Of a stretch of DNA of 29,964 nt, positions 13,459-28,002 are shown piece after piece (the stretch's first letter is position 1; each line of letters begins with the position of its first letter). The translations under genes were made by a program, and so were the position numbers. The notes under the pieces were generated by a model that made no database searches, was not told where the DNA came from, and worked only from the letters and a program-made list of their open reading frames with translations. The stretch comes from a virus. Its lineage: Duplodnaviria > Heunggongvirae > Uroviricota > Caudoviricetes. The stretch lies in IMG/VR virus record IMGVR_UViG_2778261393_000002, one strand, 5' to 3'.

Positions 13459-13612
13459 AGGATGATCCTTTTTCTATGTGAATCATCACCACTGCTGACG
13501 CCAATCAGTATGGTGGTGAACTGTGCAGGGTTGGCGTAACCGGGAAAAAGGAACCGGCGCGGATCGCTCCGCCCCCACACAGCCCACCATTGAGATGTGA
13601 CAGTGCAAACGA

Positions 13613-13637
13613 CAATAAAAAAGACGCTGGCGCGTCT
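13613..13637 (-). terminator. tR'-like Rho-independent terminator downstream of Q
   Basis: Stem AGACGC (13622-13627) and GCGTCT (13632-13637) with 4-nt loop, then a U-run on the minus strand (plus-strand AATAAAAA 13613-13620). About 95 nt downstream of the Q stop, as expected for a late-promoter leader terminator. Confidence 0.5.
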
Positions 13638-13731
13638 GTTGTCGCCTTTTTCATCCGGGACGCCAATCCCGACGCCAGATTTTGCTGGCGCGTGAGGAAT
13701 ATAGCCCCGGACAATGTGTCTGGTCAAGCTC

Positions 13732-16656: not shown

Positions 16657-16812
16657 TTACTCCTCAGGTTCGTAAGCTGTGAAGACAGCGACCTCCGTCT
16701 GGCCGGTTCGGATTCGTACCTCGCAGAGGTCTTTCCTCGTTACCAGTGCCGTCACAATGACGGTTAAACAGATGACGATCAGGGCGATTAACATCGCCTT
16801 TTGCTGCTTCAT
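16657..16812 (-). CDS. hokD: Hok/Gef-family type I toxin
   Basis: 51 aa MKQQKAMLIALIVICLTVIVTALVTRKDLCEVRIRTGQTEVAVFTAYEPEE with AAGGAG SD, matching HokD/RelF as recalled. An overlapping upstream frame (to 16869) is the mok-like reading frame. Confidence 0.85.
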   Translation of the reverse strand: MKQQKAMLIALIVICLTVIVTALVTRKDLCEVRIRTGQTEVAVFTAYEPEE

Positions 16813-17023
16813 AGCCTGCTTCTCCTTGCCTTTCGGCACGTAAGAGGCTAACCTAGATTTGCCGTTCATAGATTGAGCCTCAGATTAATGTTAAGCGTCT
16901 TGCAGGACGCGTAATGTTAACTGGGGCTTTTCTCTATCTGCCTTTGGTGTTCATGCCTGAGACAGATAGCCTCAAGCACCCGCAGCCATTCTACTTAACT
17001 CCCGTTACCTCGCCAATATAAAA

Positions 17024-22240: not shown

Positions 22241-22666
22241 TCAATGTACTGCCACAGCATTTCCTGCCGGGCCACCACGGTTCATCTGATTGAAACCGGC
22301 GATTGCCACTGCGACAAAATCATCAGCGTCTCTCACCAGCCGCTCCCGCGTCTCCACCAGCTCCCGAAAATAAGCTGAACTGTGGCTGCGCATTCTGGCC
22401 ACCAGCAAAGGTGGCATTGCCTTTTCGATCGCTGGTAACAACGCCTGAATTTTTTCAACTGCATCAGGGGTGTCTTTCTCTATCCAGCGGAAAATTTTCT
22501 GGGTATTGCGAGCCAGGGCGTCCGGATGGCTGTCGTCGTACAGTTCAGGAAACGTCATACCCAACTCAAAATAAGCCTGGGTTATTCCAGCTGCCGGAAC
22601 TTTTTCGCCATCAGGACGTGCCCAGGCATTCATCGCCATGCGGATGTGTTCATGCTTGATTTTCAT
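22241..22666 (-). CDS. YdaT-like protein (cII-position gene)
   Basis: Start taken at MKIKHEHI, which matches the N-terminus of Rac YdaT as recalled. Directly downstream of and overlapping the Cro-like gene. Confidence 0.6.
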   Translation of the reverse strand: MKIKHEHIRMAMNAWARPDGEKVPAAGITQAYFELGMTFPELYDDSHPDALARNTQKIFRWIEKDTPDAVEKIQALLPAIEKAMPPLLVARMRSHSSAYFRELVETRERLVRDADDFVAVAIAGFNQMNRGGPAGNAVAVH

Positions 22667-22892
22667 GAATCCCCCCTTGGTTAGAAGGCGGATTATGATC
22701 AGAACCGGGAATGACAACCGTCGGTATGTGTAACTCATATTTGAGCGCCCCGGCAGTGACTGCCTGAATTAGCAACGCCCATTTCCACGGAACGTCTTCC
22801 CCCCACATGCTGACTGTGGTTTTTGACGTTCCTAGAGCGGCGGCTGTTTTAACAACTCCGCCAAAATAGCCTAATACTTCTGATTTTTTCAT
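22650..22892 (-). CDS. Cro/DicC-like (YdaS-family) HTH regulator
   Basis: 80 aa from MKKSEVLGYFGG (SD GGAG upstream). Divergent from the CI-like repressor across a 91-bp intergenic region. Confidence 0.65.
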   Translation of the reverse strand: MKKSEVLGYFGGVVKTAAALGTSKTTVSMWGEDVPWKWALLIQAVTAGALKYELHIPTVVIPGSDHNPPSNQGGIHENQA

Positions 22893-22983
22893 GATTCGCT
22901 CCATAAAACTGAACGCCAAAAGTTTAATAATCAAAACCAAAGAAAGTCAAGAAACAAAACCATCTGTGTTTTAAAATCAAAAC

Positions 22984-23622
22984 ATGAACAAGCAAACAAT
23001 ATCTGAACGCATAACCCAACGTATGCATGCGCTAAACTTGAAAGGCAAAGACCTTGTCAATGCCACTGGCGCATCAAAAGGCTCCGTAAGTCAATGGATG
23101 AACGGTGGAGGAGCGCCGTCCTCGCGTTACATAAGCTCACTGGCAAAGATATTGAAAGTAAACGAAAATTGGCTTCTTAATGGAGGAGAGTTAAATACAG
23201 GTGATTCGCTTGATCTATCTTTACCGCCGATAAAAACGGTTCCGCTACTATCACTTCAGCAGGCAGCAAGCTGGAGTGATTATATGAAAAATTCCTCAAT
23301 AACCTCTTGTGTGCAGCTTGTCGGAGAAATCCCGGCCAATACCTTTGCTGTTGTTCTAGAGAGTGACAGTATGTCGACATCTGGTGGTGGAGTTTCCATC
23401 CCAAATGGTTCAACAGTTTTTGTTGATCCCGATCGAATCGTACAACCAGGAAATATTGTCCTTGCCTTACCCAAAGGGACCACAACGCCTGTCATTCGCA
23501 AACTGGAGATAGAAGGGCCGGATATTCTTTTAGTCCCCACGAATCCTCGCTACCCTTCAATTATGCTGGATGATCTATCTTGCATATTGGGAGTATGCTT
23601 TAAAATTCAACAAGATATTTAA
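22984..23622 (+). CDS. CI-like repressor with N-terminal HTH and C-terminal S24 (LexA-like) peptidase domain
   Basis: 212 aa. N-terminal XRE-type HTH (LKGKDLVNATGASKGSVSQWMNG). C-terminal peptidase region with SDSMS serine and a downstream Lys (VIRKLE). Confidence 0.85.
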   Translation: MNKQTISERITQRMHALNLKGKDLVNATGASKGSVSQWMNGGGAPSSRYISSLAKILKVNENWLLNGGELNTGDSLDLSLPPIKTVPLLSLQQAASWSDYMKNSSITSCVQLVGEIPANTFAVVLESDSMSTSGGGVSIPNGSTVFVDPDRIVQPGNIVLALPKGTTTPVIRKLEIEGPDILLVPTNPRYPSIMLDDLSCILGVCFKIQQDI

Positions 23623-23914
23623 CCAACCTCATCTATTTGATTAACTGTATGCCATCGTAGTGATGGCGTAACAGCTGCCTGCTTAAAATGTTTTGATAAA
23701 AAAACATTGACCTTAAATGTTCATTTTCCTAAACTTCATTCATTCCCTCACCCCGCCCCACAGAATGCAGGGCAATACTTCGAGTTACCAGGCAGTGGTC
23801 AGGGGTTAAGTAGCCAGCCCGAGGCGTAAGAACATGACGGCAGGGTTCAACTTTAATAACTATGCAGCAGGTTTTTGTTCCGCTACCCCGGCGTTAAGGG
23901 GAAATGAGGTCAGC

Positions 23915-24070
23915 ATGGATACTATCGATCTTGGCAACAACGAATCTCTGGTATACGGCGTGTTTCCCAACCATGACGGAACGTTCACCGCGATGACGTA
24001 TACCAAAAGCAAAACGTTTAAAACCGAAACTGGCGCACGTCGCTGGCTGGAAAGAAATTCAGGTGAGTGA
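23915..24070 (+). CDS. YdfA-like small protein
   Basis: 51 aa MDTIDLGNNESLVYGVFPNHDGTFTAMTYTKSKTFKTETGARRWLERNSGE. First gene after the repressor as in the Qin dicB operon. Alternative upstream start at 23834. Confidence 0.5.
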   Translation: MDTIDLGNNESLVYGVFPNHDGTFTAMTYTKSKTFKTETGARRWLERNSGE

Positions 24071-24211: not shown

Positions 24212-24370
24212 ATGGAATTTAAAGATTTACCTCCAGACACTCAGAAAATCGCCGCAGAAACACTGAAATCTCTCATTTTGAACGGGGAGACAGAAAAGGT
24301 AGAGCCAGCTAAAAAACTGGCTCAAGAAATCAGAGAAGCCTTTATTGCTCTTTATCAGTCTTCTCCATAG
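24212..24370 (+). CDS. YdfC-like small protein, 52 aa
   Basis: ATG at 24212. MEFKDLPPDTQKIAAETLKSLILNGETEKVEPAKKLAQEIREAFIALYQSSP. Position matches ydfC in the Qin dicB operon. Confidence 0.45.
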   Translation: MEFKDLPPDTQKIAAETLKSLILNGETEKVEPAKKLAQEIREAFIALYQSSP

Positions 24371-24527
24371 CGGCTTGTTTTTCTTCTTTTAATATATTGC
24401 GAATTGTAATAACTGAATTAGCCGCCTCTGAAGGGGATGACATTTTGCCAGCCCGAATTAACTCAACTGTTAAGTTCAAAGCTGCAACAGATGGATAGGT
24501 AAATGGGTTAATTAACTTGTCTGACAT
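24342..24527 (-). CDS. Hypothetical small protein, 61 aa, convergent with ydfC-like gene
   Basis: ATG preceded by a perfect GGAGG SD (ATGGAGGATAAAATG). MSDKLINPFTYPSVAALNLTVELIRAGKMSSPSEAANSVITIRNILKEEKQAAMEKTDKEQ. Overlaps the ydfC-like 3' end by 29 nt. Confidence 0.3.
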   Translation of the reverse strand: MSDKLINPFTYPSVAALNLTVELIRAGKMSSPSEAANSVITIRNILKEEKQAAMEKTDKEQ

Positions 24528-24857
24528 TTTATCCTCCATTGAGGTTCTGGGTTAAAAATGGAGACCAACATGCTGCCACATGTGGTCGTGCGCCGGACAC
24601 GGATAAGAATCCGGCACTGACAGTTTACTGAAAGGATATATCCCTGAAAAGTCAGGGCATAACGCGAAAGCGCACGGCGAAGTTCGTCTCACTGTACGGT
24701 GTCGTTAAATTTAATTCGACCGTGCGCTTCCGGTTGTGGCACTCCGCGAAATGGCGCGGCGGTACGTATGGCGGGGTTATTCCTTCCCCCTGTTGAGGAC
24801 ACCGGGTTGTCAGGTTGACCATACGCCTGAGTGACAACCCCGCTGCAACAACCCATG

Positions 24858-24911
24858 TTGATTACCTTTTGGCGGCATCAGTTTCATTGCTGGCTGATGT
24901 CCGTCCTTTTT
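24858..24911 (+). ncRNA. dicF: DicF-like small RNA
   Basis: TTTGGCGGCATCAGTTTCATTGCTGGCTGATGTCCGTCCTTTTT resembles the K-12 DicF sequence as I recall it (TTTGGCGGTATCAGTTTTACTCCGTGACTGCTCTGCCGCCC). Has a 3' hairpin (CATCAG/CTGATG) and T-run. Position between ydfC and dicB as in Qin. Boundaries approximate. Confidence 0.45.
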
Positions 24912-24916
24912 AAAGT

Positions 24917-25076
24917 GAATTTTGTGATGCGGTGAATGCGGCTCAGCGCACGCGGAACAGTTAAAAAGGCCAGTTGACTTCCGTATTGGTTCTTATGGGT
25001 GGGTTCTCTGTATCCGGCGTTAATTGTTAACTAGTTAACGTCACCTGGAGGCACCAGGCACCGCATCACAAAATTC
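24917..25076. repeat. 18-bp perfect long-range inverted repeat enclosing a 14-bp palindrome, upstream of dicB
   Basis: GAATTTTGTGATGCGGTG (24917-24934) and CACCGCATCACAAAATTC (25059-25076), 124 bp apart. GTTAACTAGTTAAC palindrome at 25026-25039. Confidence 0.7.
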
Positions 25077-25094
25077 ATTGTTGAGGACGCGATA

Positions 25095-25277
25095 ATGGAA
25101 ACGTTATTACCAAACGTCAATACGTCTGAAGGTTGTTTTGAAATTGGTGTCAGAATCAGTAACTCTGTATTTACTGAAGATGCCATTAATAAGAGAAAAC
25201 ACGAACGGGAGCTATTAAATCAAATATGCATTGTTTCAATGCTGGCCCGTTTACGCCTGATGCAAAAAGGACGCTGA
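25095..25277 (+). CDS. dicB: Cell-division inhibitor DicB
   Basis: 60 aa METLLPNVNTSEGCFEIGVRISNSVFTEDAINKRKHERELLNQICIVSMLARLRLMQKGR, near-identical to K-12 DicB as recalled. Confidence 0.85.
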   Translation: METLLPNVNTSEGCFEIGVRISNSVFTEDAINKRKHERELLNQICIVSMLARLRLMQKGR

Positions 25278-25279
25278 CA

Positions 25280-25483
25280 ATGAATACAGCATTTGCTCTC
25301 GTTCTGACAGTTTTTCTTAATACAGGCGAACCAGTCGATCTTGTTATTGGTATACATGACTCAATGAAAGAATGCATGGCTGCCGCAGCGGAACAGAAAA
25401 TTCCCGGCAACTGTTATCCGGTTGATAAAGTTATTCGCATGGACAATAACGAAATCCCGGCAGGACTTAAAACAGCACCATAA
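25280..25483 (+). CDS. ydfD: YdfD-like small membrane protein
   Basis: Start taken at MNTAFALVLTVFL. AAAEQKIPGNCYPVDKVI matches YdfD as recalled. Immediately after dicB. Confidence 0.7.
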   Translation: MNTAFALVLTVFLNTGEPVDLVIGIHDSMKECMAAAAEQKIPGNCYPVDKVIRMDNNEIPAGLKTAP

Positions 25484-25563: not shown

Positions 25564-28002
25564 ATGAGTAAAGTCTTTATTTGCGCCGCCATTCCGGACG
25601 AACAGGCAATAAAGGAAGAAGGTGCAGTCGCTGTAGCCACTGCCATTGAAGCCGGCGACGAACGCCGCGCCCGTGCCAAATTTACCTGGCAATTCCTGGA
25701 GCAATATCCGGCTGCTCAGGACTGCGCTTATAAATTTCTTGTTTGCGAGGATAAACCCGGCATGCCCCGCCCTGCCATCAACTCCTGGGATACCGAATAT
25801 ATGCTGGAAAACCGCTGGGATGAAGAGTCAGCCTCTTTTGTCCCGATCGAACCAGAATCCGATCCGATGAACGTCAATTTTGACAAGCTGTCCCTTGAAG
25901 TACAGAACGCGGTCCTGGTTAAGTTCGGTACATGTGAAAACATCACCGTTGATATGGTGATTAGTGCACAGGAATTGTTGCAGGAGGACATGGCAACATT
26001 CGACGGGCATATCGTTGAGGCATTGATGAAAATGCCTGAAGTTAACGTCATGTATTCAGAACTAAAGCTGTTCGCCATCGGGTGGGTTAAACATAAATGT
26101 AAGCCGGGTGCAAAATGGCCTGAGATCCAGACAGAATTACGCACCTGGAAAAAACGTCGCGAAGCCGAACGCAAAGAAACCGGGAAATACACGTCTGTTG
26201 TTGATCTTGCCCGCGCCAGAGTCAACCGGCAGCACACTGAAAACTCAGCAGGAAAAATCAACCCCGCCACTGCCGCCATTCGTCGCGAATACAAGCAGAC
26301 ATGGAAAACGCTGGATGAAGAACTGGCCTACGCTCTGTGGCCTGGCGATATTAATGCCGGAAACATTGACGGCAGCATCCATCGCTGGGCAAAAAATGAA
26401 GTTATCGACAAAGATCGCGAAGACTGGAAGCGCATTTCCGCATCAATGCGCAAACAACCCGATGCCGTCCGCTACGACCGTCAGACTATTTTTGGCCTTG
26501 TCCGTGAGCGTCCGATCGACATTCACAAAGATCCCGTGGCACTGAACAAATACATCACTGAATACCTGGCGACAAAGGGCGTGTTTGAGGATGAAGAAAC
26601 AGACCAGAACACTGCTGATATTCTCCAGCCGTCAGCAGCACAAACTGATGCAGTGGAAACTGAAGTATCTGATACCCAAAAAAATGAAAGCACGCTGGAA
26701 ACTGAACCATCTGTAGAGCGTGAGGGGCCGTTCTACTTCCTTTTCACCGATAAGGATGGCGAAAAATATGGTCGTGCAAACAAACTTTCTGGTCTGAATA
26801 AGGCGCTGGCTGCAGGGGCTACTGAAATCACGAAAGAAGAATATTTTGCCCGCAAAAACGGCACATACTCAGGTTCACAACAAAATACTGGTGCATCTGA
26901 CACGATCGCACAACCAGAGCCGGTAAAAGTTACCGCTGACGAAGTAAACAAAATTATGCAGGCAGCCAATATCAGCCAGCCTGACGCCAATAAGTTGCTT
27001 GCTGTATCACGTGGTGAATTTGTTGCAGGGATTAGCGACCCGAATGATCCGAAATGGGTGAAGGGGATTGAAACCCGCGATTCAGTGAATCAGAACCAGC
27101 AAGAAACGGAACAGAACGACCAGAAAGCGGAACAAAACAGCCCAAATGCGCAACAGGAGCCGGAAAAAGCCTGCACCGCCTGCGGTCAGACCAGCGGCGG
27201 CAACTGCCCTGATTGTGGTGCGGTGATGGGCGACGCAACGTATCAGGAAACCTTTAATGAAGAAAATCTGGATGAATCTCAGGAAAAAGATCCGGAGGAA
27301 ATGGAAGGCGCTGAACATCCACACAAGGAGAATGCTGGCAGCTATCAGGACCACGCCAGCGATAGCGAAACTGGCGAGACGGCAGATCCCTTAATTGCGG
27401 TGAACGGTCATCACGTTATCACATCCACCAGCAGAGTGTGGTACCACCTGATGATCGACCTTGAAACGATGGGTAAAAAAAGTAATGCCCCCATCGTGGT
27501 TATTGGTGCTGTGTTCTTCGATCCGCAGACCGGGGAAATCGGGCCAACATTTTATATCGTTATCAGCCTGGTTGACGCTATGGACACGGGTGCTGTTCCT
27601 GATGGTTCCACCATCGAATGGTGGCTTGCTCAGTCCAGCGAAGCCAGATCTGCAATTTTAGTTGATCAGGTAAAACTGGTTGACGCTCTTATTCAATTTC
27701 GGGAATTCATCAATGAGTACTCGGATGAAAAATTCGTTCAGGTATGGGGCAATGGTGCAACTTTCGACAACACTATTTTACGAACCTCGTACGAACGCCT
27801 GAACATCCCCTGCCCGTGGCGTTACTACAACGATCGCGATGTACGTACAATCGTTGAACTGGGAAAAACTATCGGCTTCGATGCCAGAACAGTTATTCCA
27901 TTTGAAGGCGTGCGCCACCATGCGCTGGATGATGCCCGTCACCAGGCGAAATACGTTACAGCCACGATACAAAAACTGATCCCGAATCAGGCTGATTTTT
28001 AA
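25564..28002 (+). CDS. Large prophage exonuclease with C-terminal DEDDh-type 3'-5' exonuclease domain and a CxxC..CxxC zinc ribbon
   Basis: 812 aa. C-terminus has DnaQ-like motifs (MIDLETMG ... WGNGATFDN ... HHALDDARHQAKY). Zinc-ribbon-like CTACGQTSGGNCPDCG. Sits in the exo/recombination position between dicB and xis-int. Confidence 0.75.
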   Translation: MSKVFICAAIPDEQAIKEEGAVAVATAIEAGDERRARAKFTWQFLEQYPAAQDCAYKFLVCEDKPGMPRPAINSWDTEYMLENRWDEESASFVPIEPESDPMNVNFDKLSLEVQNAVLVKFGTCENITVDMVISAQELLQEDMATFDGHIVEALMKMPEVNVMYSELKLFAIGWVKHKCKPGAKWPEIQTELRTWKKRREAERKETGKYTSVVDLARARVNRQHTENSAGKINPATAAIRREYKQTWKTLDEELAYALWPGDINAGNIDGSIHRWAKNEVIDKDREDWKRISASMRKQPDAVRYDRQTIFGLVRERPIDIHKDPVALNKYITEYLATKGVFEDEETDQNTADILQPSAAQTDAVETEVSDTQKNESTLETEPSVEREGPFYFLFTDKDGEKYGRANKLSGLNKALAAGATEITKEEYFARKNGTYSGSQQNTGASDTIAQPEPVKVTADEVNKIMQAANISQPDANKLLAVSRGEFVAGISDPNDPKWVKGIETRDSVNQNQQETEQNDQKAEQNSPNAQQEPEKACTACGQTSGGNCPDCGAVMGDATYQETFNEENLDESQEKDPEEMEGAEHPHKENAGSYQDHASDSETGETADPLIAVNGHHVITSTSRVWYHLMIDLETMGKKSNAPIVVIGAVFFDPQTGEIGPTFYIVISLVDAMDTGAVPDGSTIEWWLAQSSEARSAILVDQVKLVDALIQFREFINEYSDEKFVQVWGNGATFDNTILRTSYERLNIPCPWRYYNDRDVRTIVELGKTIGFDARTVIPFEGVRHHALDDARHQAKYVTATIQKLIPNQADF

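Follow-up and report, generated by a model that had tools for sequence, protein, structure and literature searches.

Features of the dicF-dicB segment

We analysed a 29,964-nucleotide (nt) stretch of viral DNA, called the window below (IMG/VR record IMGVR_UViG_2778261393_000002), and in particular its positions 24856-25095, which lie on the + strand in the early operon of a lambdoid prophage. It corresponds to the part of the early-left operon that runs from dicF to dicB, DicF and DicB being textbook prophage-encoded cell-division inhibitors of E. coli. The original prediction had placed here a DicF-like small RNA with a terminator-like 3' end, followed, before dicB, by a perfect inverted repeat of 18 base pairs (bp) enclosing a 14-bp palindrome; the repeat had been read either as a long stem suited to RNase III processing or as a protein-binding site controlling dicB. 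The gene that follows is indeed dicB, and the gene order around DicF, from the ydfA-like DUF1391 gene to dicB, is the same as in K-12 and in strain EC11. An 801-nt query around the segment matched 4,718 of 5,426 complete E. coli genomes, EC11 being the best match with 99.6% identity. The features on which the argument depends are the following.

24856-24911, + strand: DicF-family small RNA allele with its intrinsic terminator (Rfam, terminator scan; 5' boundary uncertain)
~24871-24906, + strand: DicF terminator hairpin, with the U-run at 24907-24911
24914-24934, + strand: 5' strand of helix P1, left repeat arm (repeat search, folding, relatives)
25059-25079, + strand: 3' strand of helix P1, right repeat arm (repeat search, folding, relatives)
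25083-25087, + strand: dicB Shine-Dalgarno sequence GAGGA, 4 nt past the base of P1 (read from the sequence)
25095-25277, + strand: dicB, cell-division inhibitor gene (full-length Pfam DicB match, E=4e-37; annotated dicB in EC11)

The inverted repeat as an RNA helix

The two arms of the repeat (24916-24934, TGAATTTTGTGATGCGGTG, and 25059-25077) are 100% complementary and separated by 124 nt, as had been proposed, and they are 19 nt long rather than 18. No longer inverted repeat is present in the whole window. When positions 24600-25400 were shuffled with dinucleotide composition preserved (n=100), the longest perfect inverted repeat had a mean length of 8.7 nt and a maximum of 11; the 19-nt repeat is far beyond chance. 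As RNA the pairing goes further and the helix, P1, reaches 21 bp (24914-24934 / 25059-25079), with 19 consecutive Watson-Crick pairs plus one A-U and one G.U pair. Folding of the + strand recovered this stem with -71.6 kcal/mol (z=-7.0), compared with -56.9 for the - strand, a gap of 15 kcal/mol.

Relatives were collected by scanning viral contigs with a 20-nt motif around hairpin P5 (described below), which gave 120 loci; over all collected loci we counted 138 copies of the motif, 40 of a leader type, as in the window, and 98 of the type of the small RNA STnc100. In 22 non-identical leader-type relatives from the viral contigs P1 is 97.6% paired, with 9 compensatory pairs, and all controls were exceeded. 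The K-12 arms have U.G and G.U pairs at positions where the window has C-G and G-C, and locus L082 swaps U-A to C-G and A-U to G-C, while in the lineage of L036, L041 and L095 the outer half of P1 is wholly different in sequence with its pairing retained. A scan of one genome per species added leader-type copies from independent lineages in Citrobacter, Lelliottia and Buttiauxella and from one further locus, L211; in these copies a P1 of 16-23 bp is built from unrelated sequence, and each copy is followed by a ribosome-binding site and then a small open reading frame (ORF). Since relatives retain the helix through G.U and compensatory changes, which matter in RNA only, this comparison indicates that the inverted repeat works at the RNA level. 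P1 offers the approximately two turns (20-22 bp) of uninterrupted double-stranded RNA expected of an RNase III substrate, and the compensatory pairs, the G.U pairs and the unrelated long P1 helices of other genera show a helix maintained as RNA.

A five-helix domain with a pseudoknot

P1 does not belong to a plain hairpin; it closes a domain of about 166 nt (24914-25079) with five helices and a covarying pseudoknot. The original prediction had missed that the stem closes what, judging from the relatives, is a conserved multi-helix pseudoknotted domain related to STnc100. Inside P1 the elements are as follows.

24938-24953, + strand: P2 hairpin, 5 bp, bulged A, loop UCAGC (RNAalifold)
24958-24964, + strand: 5' strand of the pseudoknot, CAGUUAA, located in the junction that follows P2 (no variation among 22 leader-type sequences)
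24965-25015, + strand: P3 variable region, with a 14-nt insertion relative to K-12 (alignment of K-12 and relatives)
25016-25042, + strand: P4 hairpin, stem GGCGUUAA / UUAACGUC, 11-nt loop 25024-25034 (5 covarying stem pairs)
25026-25039, + strand: 14-bp palindrome GTTAACTAGTTAAC, inside the P4 hairpin (read from the sequence)
25027-25033, + strand: pseudoknot 3' strand UUAACU(A), in the P4 loop
25044-25058, + strand: P5 hairpin CCUGG-AGGCA-CCAGG, with no spacer before the P1 3' strand

Across the family 98.9% of the cells of P2 are paired and three of its pairs covary (G-C to C-G). P5 is 100% paired, with a middle pair that is U-A in one subfamily and G-C in another; its motif was the search pattern, and its invariance is therefore partly due to selection.

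The pseudoknot of the window joins A24959-A24964 to U25027-U25032, that is, 6 of 7 pairs, and the seventh is lost because the P4 loop of the window has CUAG where the relatives have CUGG. The same G-to-A change, shared with EC11 only among the relatives examined, is what makes the palindrome between the arms perfect; the palindrome was found as described, and in 21 of 22 aligned relatives it is imperfect (GTTAACTGGTTAAC). It is thus a by-product of P4. Almost all members of the wider family show complementarity between the P4 loop and the junction that follows P2, and they do so with 40 distinct strand sequences (for example CAGUUAA/UUAACUG, CCAGUC/GACUGG and AGACUGACAAA/UUUGUCAGUCU). MAFFT could not align the variable P3 and P4 family-wide, and the pseudoknot was hence tested by a permutation script and not by column counts: cognate strands had a mean score of 16, compared with 10.9 for permuted partners and a maximum of 12.5 in 5,000 permutations. 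From the covariation of junction and P4 loop across these 40 strand sequences and from the permutation test we therefore conclude that the family has the pseudoknot. The combination of invariant unpaired bases with covarying helices suggests that the core of the domain has a specific partner. ARAGORN found no tRNA- or tmRNA-like gene, and a tRNA-like reading of the core is without support from that program.

Kinship with STnc100/PasD

The interior of the domain (24918-25072) matches the Rfam family STnc100 (RF02076) with 33 bits, E=2.4e-5 in the local search and 9e-4 over the whole window. The gathering score of 47 is not reached, and the match covers positions 21-154 of the 206 of the model only. 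At gathering thresholds Rfam returns neither DicF nor STnc100 here, and both appear in E-value mode only. The STnc100-type copies of our collection are bona fide members, with 69-132 bits. The two types have a common fold: P1 ending in GGUGAAU, P2 with 5 bp, a bulged A and a UNNGC loop, the junction, a variable P3, P4, and P5 of the form CC(G/U)GG-AGGCA-CC(C/A)GG abutting the P1 3' strand. This fold has 89% of its cells paired over a set of 37 diverse sequences, and its covariation score is 0.38, versus 0.15 in shuffles, none of 500 reaching the observed value, and at most 0.17 with slid partners. Judged by fold and covariation, the domain is best regarded as an unannotated branch of the STnc100/PasD family that falls below the Rfam thresholds. 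The pairing of junction and P4 loop is proposed here on the support of covariation; the Rfam alignment of STnc100 displays a nested structure only.

The length of P1 is bimodal in the family: it is 6-9 bp where an STnc100-type copy stands alone and 20-25 bp where a copy is part of an operon and precedes an ORF. Some of the stand-alone copies have a -10-like TAAAAT just upstream and many have an intrinsic terminator after them. In the dicF-dicB spacer of the window no promoter-like site on the + strand was found that could serve the element as its own promoter.

Bona fide STnc100 copies, among them those of L013, L029, L004, L124 (phage P7) and L222, are often arranged in tandem (four in L013, three in L029) and adjoin phage tRNA genes; one copy in L222 is directly followed by a tRNA-gene-like sequence. 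These arrangements suggest that STnc100 copies share processing or a genomic niche with tRNAs.

Reuse of the leader ahead of other genes

In nearly all the leader-type copies examined P1 begins a few bases from the U-run of a DicF-like terminator. The genes that follow are alleles of dicB, kilR, a 283-amino-acid insert succeeded by dicB or kilR, a ydaE-like protein, or hydrophobic peptides of 36-38 amino acids. The distance from P1 to the start codon goes from 14 to about 45 nt among these copies, and in the examples read by eye the Shine-Dalgarno sequence lies outside P1.

As a separate observation, three loci from other genera (L095, L141 and L191) have a conserved hairpin ACCACC..GCCUGAAGUGG with an A-run, 30-60 nt before the element and near the start of a divergent gene. 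This hairpin looks boxB-like.

The DicF-family allele

Positions 24856-24906 match Rfam DicF (RF00039) end to end with 28.6 bits (E=4.7e-4 in the 801-nt search). This is short of the gathering score of 48, and K-12 DicF obtains 76.7 bits. The terminator-like 3' end announced for this RNA was recovered by the terminator scan as a hairpin with T-run at 24874-24911. In the alignment with K-12 dicF the spacer downstream corresponds base for base, and the conserved core UUUGGCGG(U/C)AUCAG is kept together with the 3' intrinsic terminator, but 10 nt are missing from the 5' single-stranded segment and the loop and the 3' half differ.

The two pairing regions of K-12 DicF have been assigned to distinct targets, the 5' end to xylR and pykA and the 3' region to the ribosome-binding site of ftsZ (PMC5069750). 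In the window allele the 5' seed for xylR and pykA, UUUCUGGUGACG, is not kept, owing to the 10-nt deletion and to substitutions. For ftsZ, a crude duplex test of the window allele on positions -60..+30 gave -26.5 kcal/mol, worse than shuffled controls (z=+0.9), and K-12 DicF on -29..+25 gave -38.5 kcal/mol; such predictions overfit with long sequences, and the result serves as a weak negative only. The allele occurs in about 90 of the 5,426 complete E. coli genomes, and none of the records listed carries an RNA feature annotation under the match. Its position between ydfABC-like genes and dicB in a repressor-controlled early operon is that of DicF. Calling this RNA DicF-like was therefore partly right: scaffold and synteny are those of DicF, but the RNA stays below the Rfam threshold and is a minority allele in which both known target-pairing regions differ. 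We suggest DicF-family allele as the best name, and its targets may differ from those of K-12 DicF.

The DicF-like RNAs ahead of kilR (L011, L068, L072, L080) have a different 5' part, GCUGUGUGUAGUC, a motif that is also found after a G/C-type element in loci of the L003 type. Several seed variants of the DicF family may exist.

Predicted RNase III processing

The proposal that the long stem serves RNase III processing gains support from K-12, through the alignment of the spacer, the 3' end of a known DicF species and a published rnc-dependent site. As reported in two later papers, both citing Faubladier 1990, a 72-nt DicF species of K-12 depends on RNase III (PMC5069750, PMC9438474). In MG1655 dicF is annotated at 1649382-1649434, and a distance of 72 nt from its 5' end leads to position 654 of the K-12 locus (L123), at the bar in ...AAAGUGAAUUUUGU|GAUGUGGUG, so that the species would include the first 10 of the 19 nt of the 5' arm (K-12 arm 645-663); this is length arithmetic based on these secondary citations, and for K-12 only. 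With a 2-nt 3' overhang the partner cut in K-12 would fall at L123:784/785. Moreover, in their comparison of the wild type with an rnc deletion Gordon et al. 2017 (Table S1) list a site at 1649470, 'intergenic dicF-dicB', marked Known, with 0 reads in the wild type and 26 in the rnc mutant. Transferred to the window, the predicted cuts, and a stem upstream of DicF to which we return below, are these.

24925/24926, + strand: predicted RNase III cut in the 5' arm, transferred from the 3' end of the K-12 72-nt DicF
25069/25070, + strand: predicted staggered RNase III cut in the 3' arm, from the 2-nt 3'-overhang rule (PMC6212723)
24657-24738, + strand: long imperfect stem upstream of DicF, with inverted repeat 24665-24677 / 24720-24732 (repeat search; minimum free energy (MFE) fold)

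The two pairs between the predicted cuts include a G-C pair and the cuts are central in the 21-bp helix, in agreement with the rules derived for RNase III cleavage in vivo (PMC6212723). Cutting of P1 is thus supported by homology to published K-12 experiments, and the exact positions given for this allele are predictions. The transferred cut would leave a P1 of 9 bp on the core, which is the P1 length of stand-alone STnc100 copies; such a match is in keeping with the idea that P1 has a processing stalk as its outer half.

A second RNase III site has been described in the same operon. K-12 has a 190-nt DicF precursor whose 5' end depends on RNase III (PMC10448788), and the corresponding site mapped by Ragunathan et al. 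2023 is on the upstream side of DicF, where this 190-nt RNA begins. Position ~450 of the K-12 locus, 190 nt upstream of the terminator end, aligns with position 24731 of the window. The stem at 24657-24738 is probably the counterpart of this K-12 site.

Genomic setting

Further from the segment, the operon and its surroundings contain the following.

22650-22940, - strand: P22-Cro-like gene, divergent
22984-23622: cI-like repressor with helix-turn-helix and S24 peptidase domain
23707-23735: promoter-like site TTGACC-17-TAAACT, just downstream of the cI-like repressor gene
23834-24070: ydfA-like DUF1391 gene
25280-25483: DUF1482/ydfD-like gene, downstream of dicB
25564-28002, + strand: protein of 812 amino acids with an exonuclease domain

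The operon probably starts at the promoter-like site 23707-23735. Between the ydfB-like gene and DicF there is an ORF of 65 amino acids (24342-24539, - strand), hypothetical in the EC11 annotation and with no Pfam match, which is accompanied by a promoter-like site at 24555-24526. In the 812-amino-acid ORF a Rv2179c-like 3'-5' exoribonuclease domain occupies the C-terminal 175 residues, and the long N-terminal part has no Pfam match; its counterpart in EC11 is annotated as frameshifted. An exact 10-nt direct repeat, TGTTGAGGAC, is present at 24791-24800 and 25079-25088 (+ strand), the second copy including the dicB Shine-Dalgarno sequence, and both copies are also found in K-12. Elsewhere in the window (13509-13704 and 16807-16981, both on the - strand) Rfam identified isrK adjacent to the C4 antisense RNA and its a1/b1 targets, and also the sok antitoxin RNA; these correspond to P1/P7-immI-like and hok/sok modules within the lambdoid prophage.

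Proposed mechanism and alternative explanations

The model that we favour is as follows. Transcripts stopping at the intrinsic terminator 24874-24911 would yield the DicF-family small RNA. In transcripts that read through, the next 166 nt (24914-25079) would fold into the five-helix domain closed by the 21-bp P1, and RNase III would cut both strands of P1 near the middle, at about 24925/24926 and 25069/25070. Three products are expected: a longer DicF species with a 3' end made by RNase III, a pseudoknotted core RNA of about 144 nt with a 9-bp P1, and a dicB mRNA with an unstructured 25-nt leader carrying the Shine-Dalgarno sequence. The helix, its conservation as RNA, the orthology of the K-12 spacer and the kinship with the family are results of this analysis; the exact cut sites in this allele, what becomes of the core after excision and how DicB synthesis responds are inferred.

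Several points weigh against this model. The link between the 72-nt end and P1 is length arithmetic from secondary citations of Faubladier 1990. The site of Gordon et al. consists of 26 reads, is not nucleotide-resolved and maps to L123:671, which is 8 nt inside the domain and not in the arm; the 0 wild-type reads in the core fit degradation of the excised RNA, or equally a loss of small RNAs in library preparation. Ragunathan et al. 2023 discuss solely the RNase III site upstream of DicF, and the dependence on RNase III that is assumed for the window comes from the literature on K-12 and not from RNA of this strain or allele. Taking these points into account, we consider the model as a whole, with a terminated DicF-family RNA and a P1-closed domain cut by RNase III into three products, to be probable.

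The alternative that survives best is that P1 and its domain are mainly a cis element for the stability or translation of dicB, cleavage by RNase III being incidental; for example, ribosomes could be hindered, and the toxic DicB kept scarce, by the stiffness of a helix that ends 4 nt before the Shine-Dalgarno sequence or by base pairing between that sequence and the 3' side of the DicF terminator. In favour of such a role, P1 occupies positions -36 to -16 with respect to the AUG, and in the MFE structure of the read-through transcript CGUCCUU (24902-24908, 3' side of the DicF terminator) pairs with GAGGACG (25083-25089), stacked under P1; the downstream genes, moreover, include the division inhibitors dicB and kilR. 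However, a simple occlusion mechanism is not conserved, because the distance from P1 to the start codon varies as described above and the Shine-Dalgarno sequence is never inside P1. The terminator pairing has a C.A mismatch in K-12, and as a control element it was set aside for this mismatch and for the lack of a conserved geometry. A helix of 20-25 bp kept in unrelated sequence also fits an enzyme specific for double-stranded RNA better than occlusion, and altogether we regard the cis element as unlikely.

It is still less likely, in our opinion, that the domain is a leader sensing a ligand or factor, riboswitch-like or acting as a put-like processive antiterminator, which would control transcription into dicB and the genes downstream. 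Invariant loops, an invariant bulged A and an invariant pseudoknot amid covarying helices are typical of RNAs that bind a specific partner, the element is near a promoter in the early-left operons of several other genera, and terminators after stand-alone copies recall layouts of aptamer plus terminator. But the perfect 21-bp P1 is too stable to switch, at least 25 nt separate P1 from the terminator, with no overlap, in the examples read, and no Rfam riboswitch or antiterminator family matches. Antitermination in particular is difficult to reconcile with stand-alone copies (PasD, STnc100) that accumulate as terminated small RNAs and with K-12 transcripts that contain the element and still end after ydfD. 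These terminated copies and transcripts and the very stable P1 make both put-like antitermination and a riboswitch unlikely.

Insertion of a MITE- or ERIC-like miniature element, mobile or repetitive, into the dicF-dicB spacer would account for 19-nt terminal inverted repeats around about 124 nt and for the many related copies per genome and per prophage. We consider it very improbable, given that there is no target-site duplication at the flanks and that the interior, not the termini, is conserved, with RNA covariation that includes the pseudoknot; the long arms can be wholly different between lineages and yet paired, a covariation pattern that contradicts this reading. Finally, the second half of the original prediction, in which the inverted repeat and palindrome would be DNA sites for a protein regulating dicB, drew on the perfection of the arms and of GTTAACTAGTTAAC but found no support and has almost no probability left: the arms, 124 bp apart, are not closely spaced half-sites, the U.G and G.U changes of the relatives would be mismatched dyads in DNA (T:G type) while arms of other sequence are fully compensated, the palindrome is imperfect in nearly all relatives, folding energy is unequal between the strands, no promoter-like + strand site lies between the terminator and dicB, and the covariation pattern contradicts an operator.

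Returning to RNase III processing, a more ambitious proposal can be made. The dicF-dicB spacer would be a processing cassette that releases a pseudoknotted RNA of about 130-145 nt, of a large, unannotated STnc100/PasD branch found across Enterobacterales, and this RNA, co-made with division inhibitors (dicB, kilR), would act as a structured RNA with a specific protein or RNA partner. We put this forward tentatively, as a possibility that is less probable than the processing itself. By analogy, the released core could be loosely comparable to the stable RNAs found beside phage tRNA clusters.

In essence, the reading by RNase III restates what is known of the dicBF operon in K-12, seen in an allele that has diverged. 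What is new is the structural definition of the RNase III site, its reuse ahead of other early prophage genes and its membership, pseudoknot included, in the STnc100/PasD fold. The amounts of DicF and DicB obtained from a single transcript hinge on how it is terminated and processed in the spacer, and the known RNase III step 3' of DicF now gains a defined and evolutionarily supported structure. The shared pseudoknotted fold also links the dicF-dicB spacer to the STnc100/PasD small RNAs that Stx phages and other lambdoid phages encode. The analysis predicts that RNase III makes three products and that the core RNA has a conserved partner. Annotation based on Rfam misses both the leader-type relatives of STnc100 and the DicF allele, for which the records listed have no annotation.

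Comparison with known systems

RNase III stalks excise stable RNAs or separate cistrons in several well-known cases, such as the stems of rRNA precursors, the early mRNA sites of T7 and the lambda N leader. P1 resembles them in being a long helix formed from the flanks of a structured RNA, with a predicted double cut and 2-nt 3' overhangs; it differs in that the only cleavage shown so far is that of the K-12 orthologue, in the 5' arm.

STnc100 and PasD are prophage-encoded small RNAs associated with Hfq. The window element shares with them the closing helix ending in GGUGAAU...CACC, P2 with its bulged A, the pairing of P4 loop and junction, and P5 abutting P1. Unlike them, it lacks its own promoter as well as a single-stranded seed and a terminator, and it has the dicB ribosome-binding site at its 3' flank; its P1 has 21 bp instead of 6-9 bp, and it is located in the early-left operon, whereas STnc100 and PasD are in the late region by stx, tRNA or lysis genes. 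Phages P7 and D6 carry the core of the window element too, P1 being short there; it is situated in the ban operon, with tRNA genes on one side and tciA (terB) on the other. The P7 copy has a P1 of 8 bp, comes after tRNA genes and not after DicF, and precedes tciA (terB)-tciB.

The closest system is the dicF-dicB spacer of the K-12 prophage Qin, which has the same position in the operon and aligns column for column. Its P2, P4, P5 and pseudoknot strands match those of the window, there is no difference in the ribosome-binding site of dicB, and the 19-nt arms differ at two still-paired positions (C-G to U.G and G-C to G.U). The window differs from Qin in its DicF allele, in the 14-nt insertion in P3, in CUAG for CUGG in the P4 loop and in its upstream repressor, which is cI-like with an S24 peptidase domain, unlike DicA (PMC10448788). 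The leader of kilR in Rac-type prophages (kilR is annotated in Rac-SA53) has the same core sequence and fold; its copies have a one-base bulge in P1 and the DicF-like RNA that precedes them has a different 5' part, and they stand before another division inhibitor directed against FtsZ.

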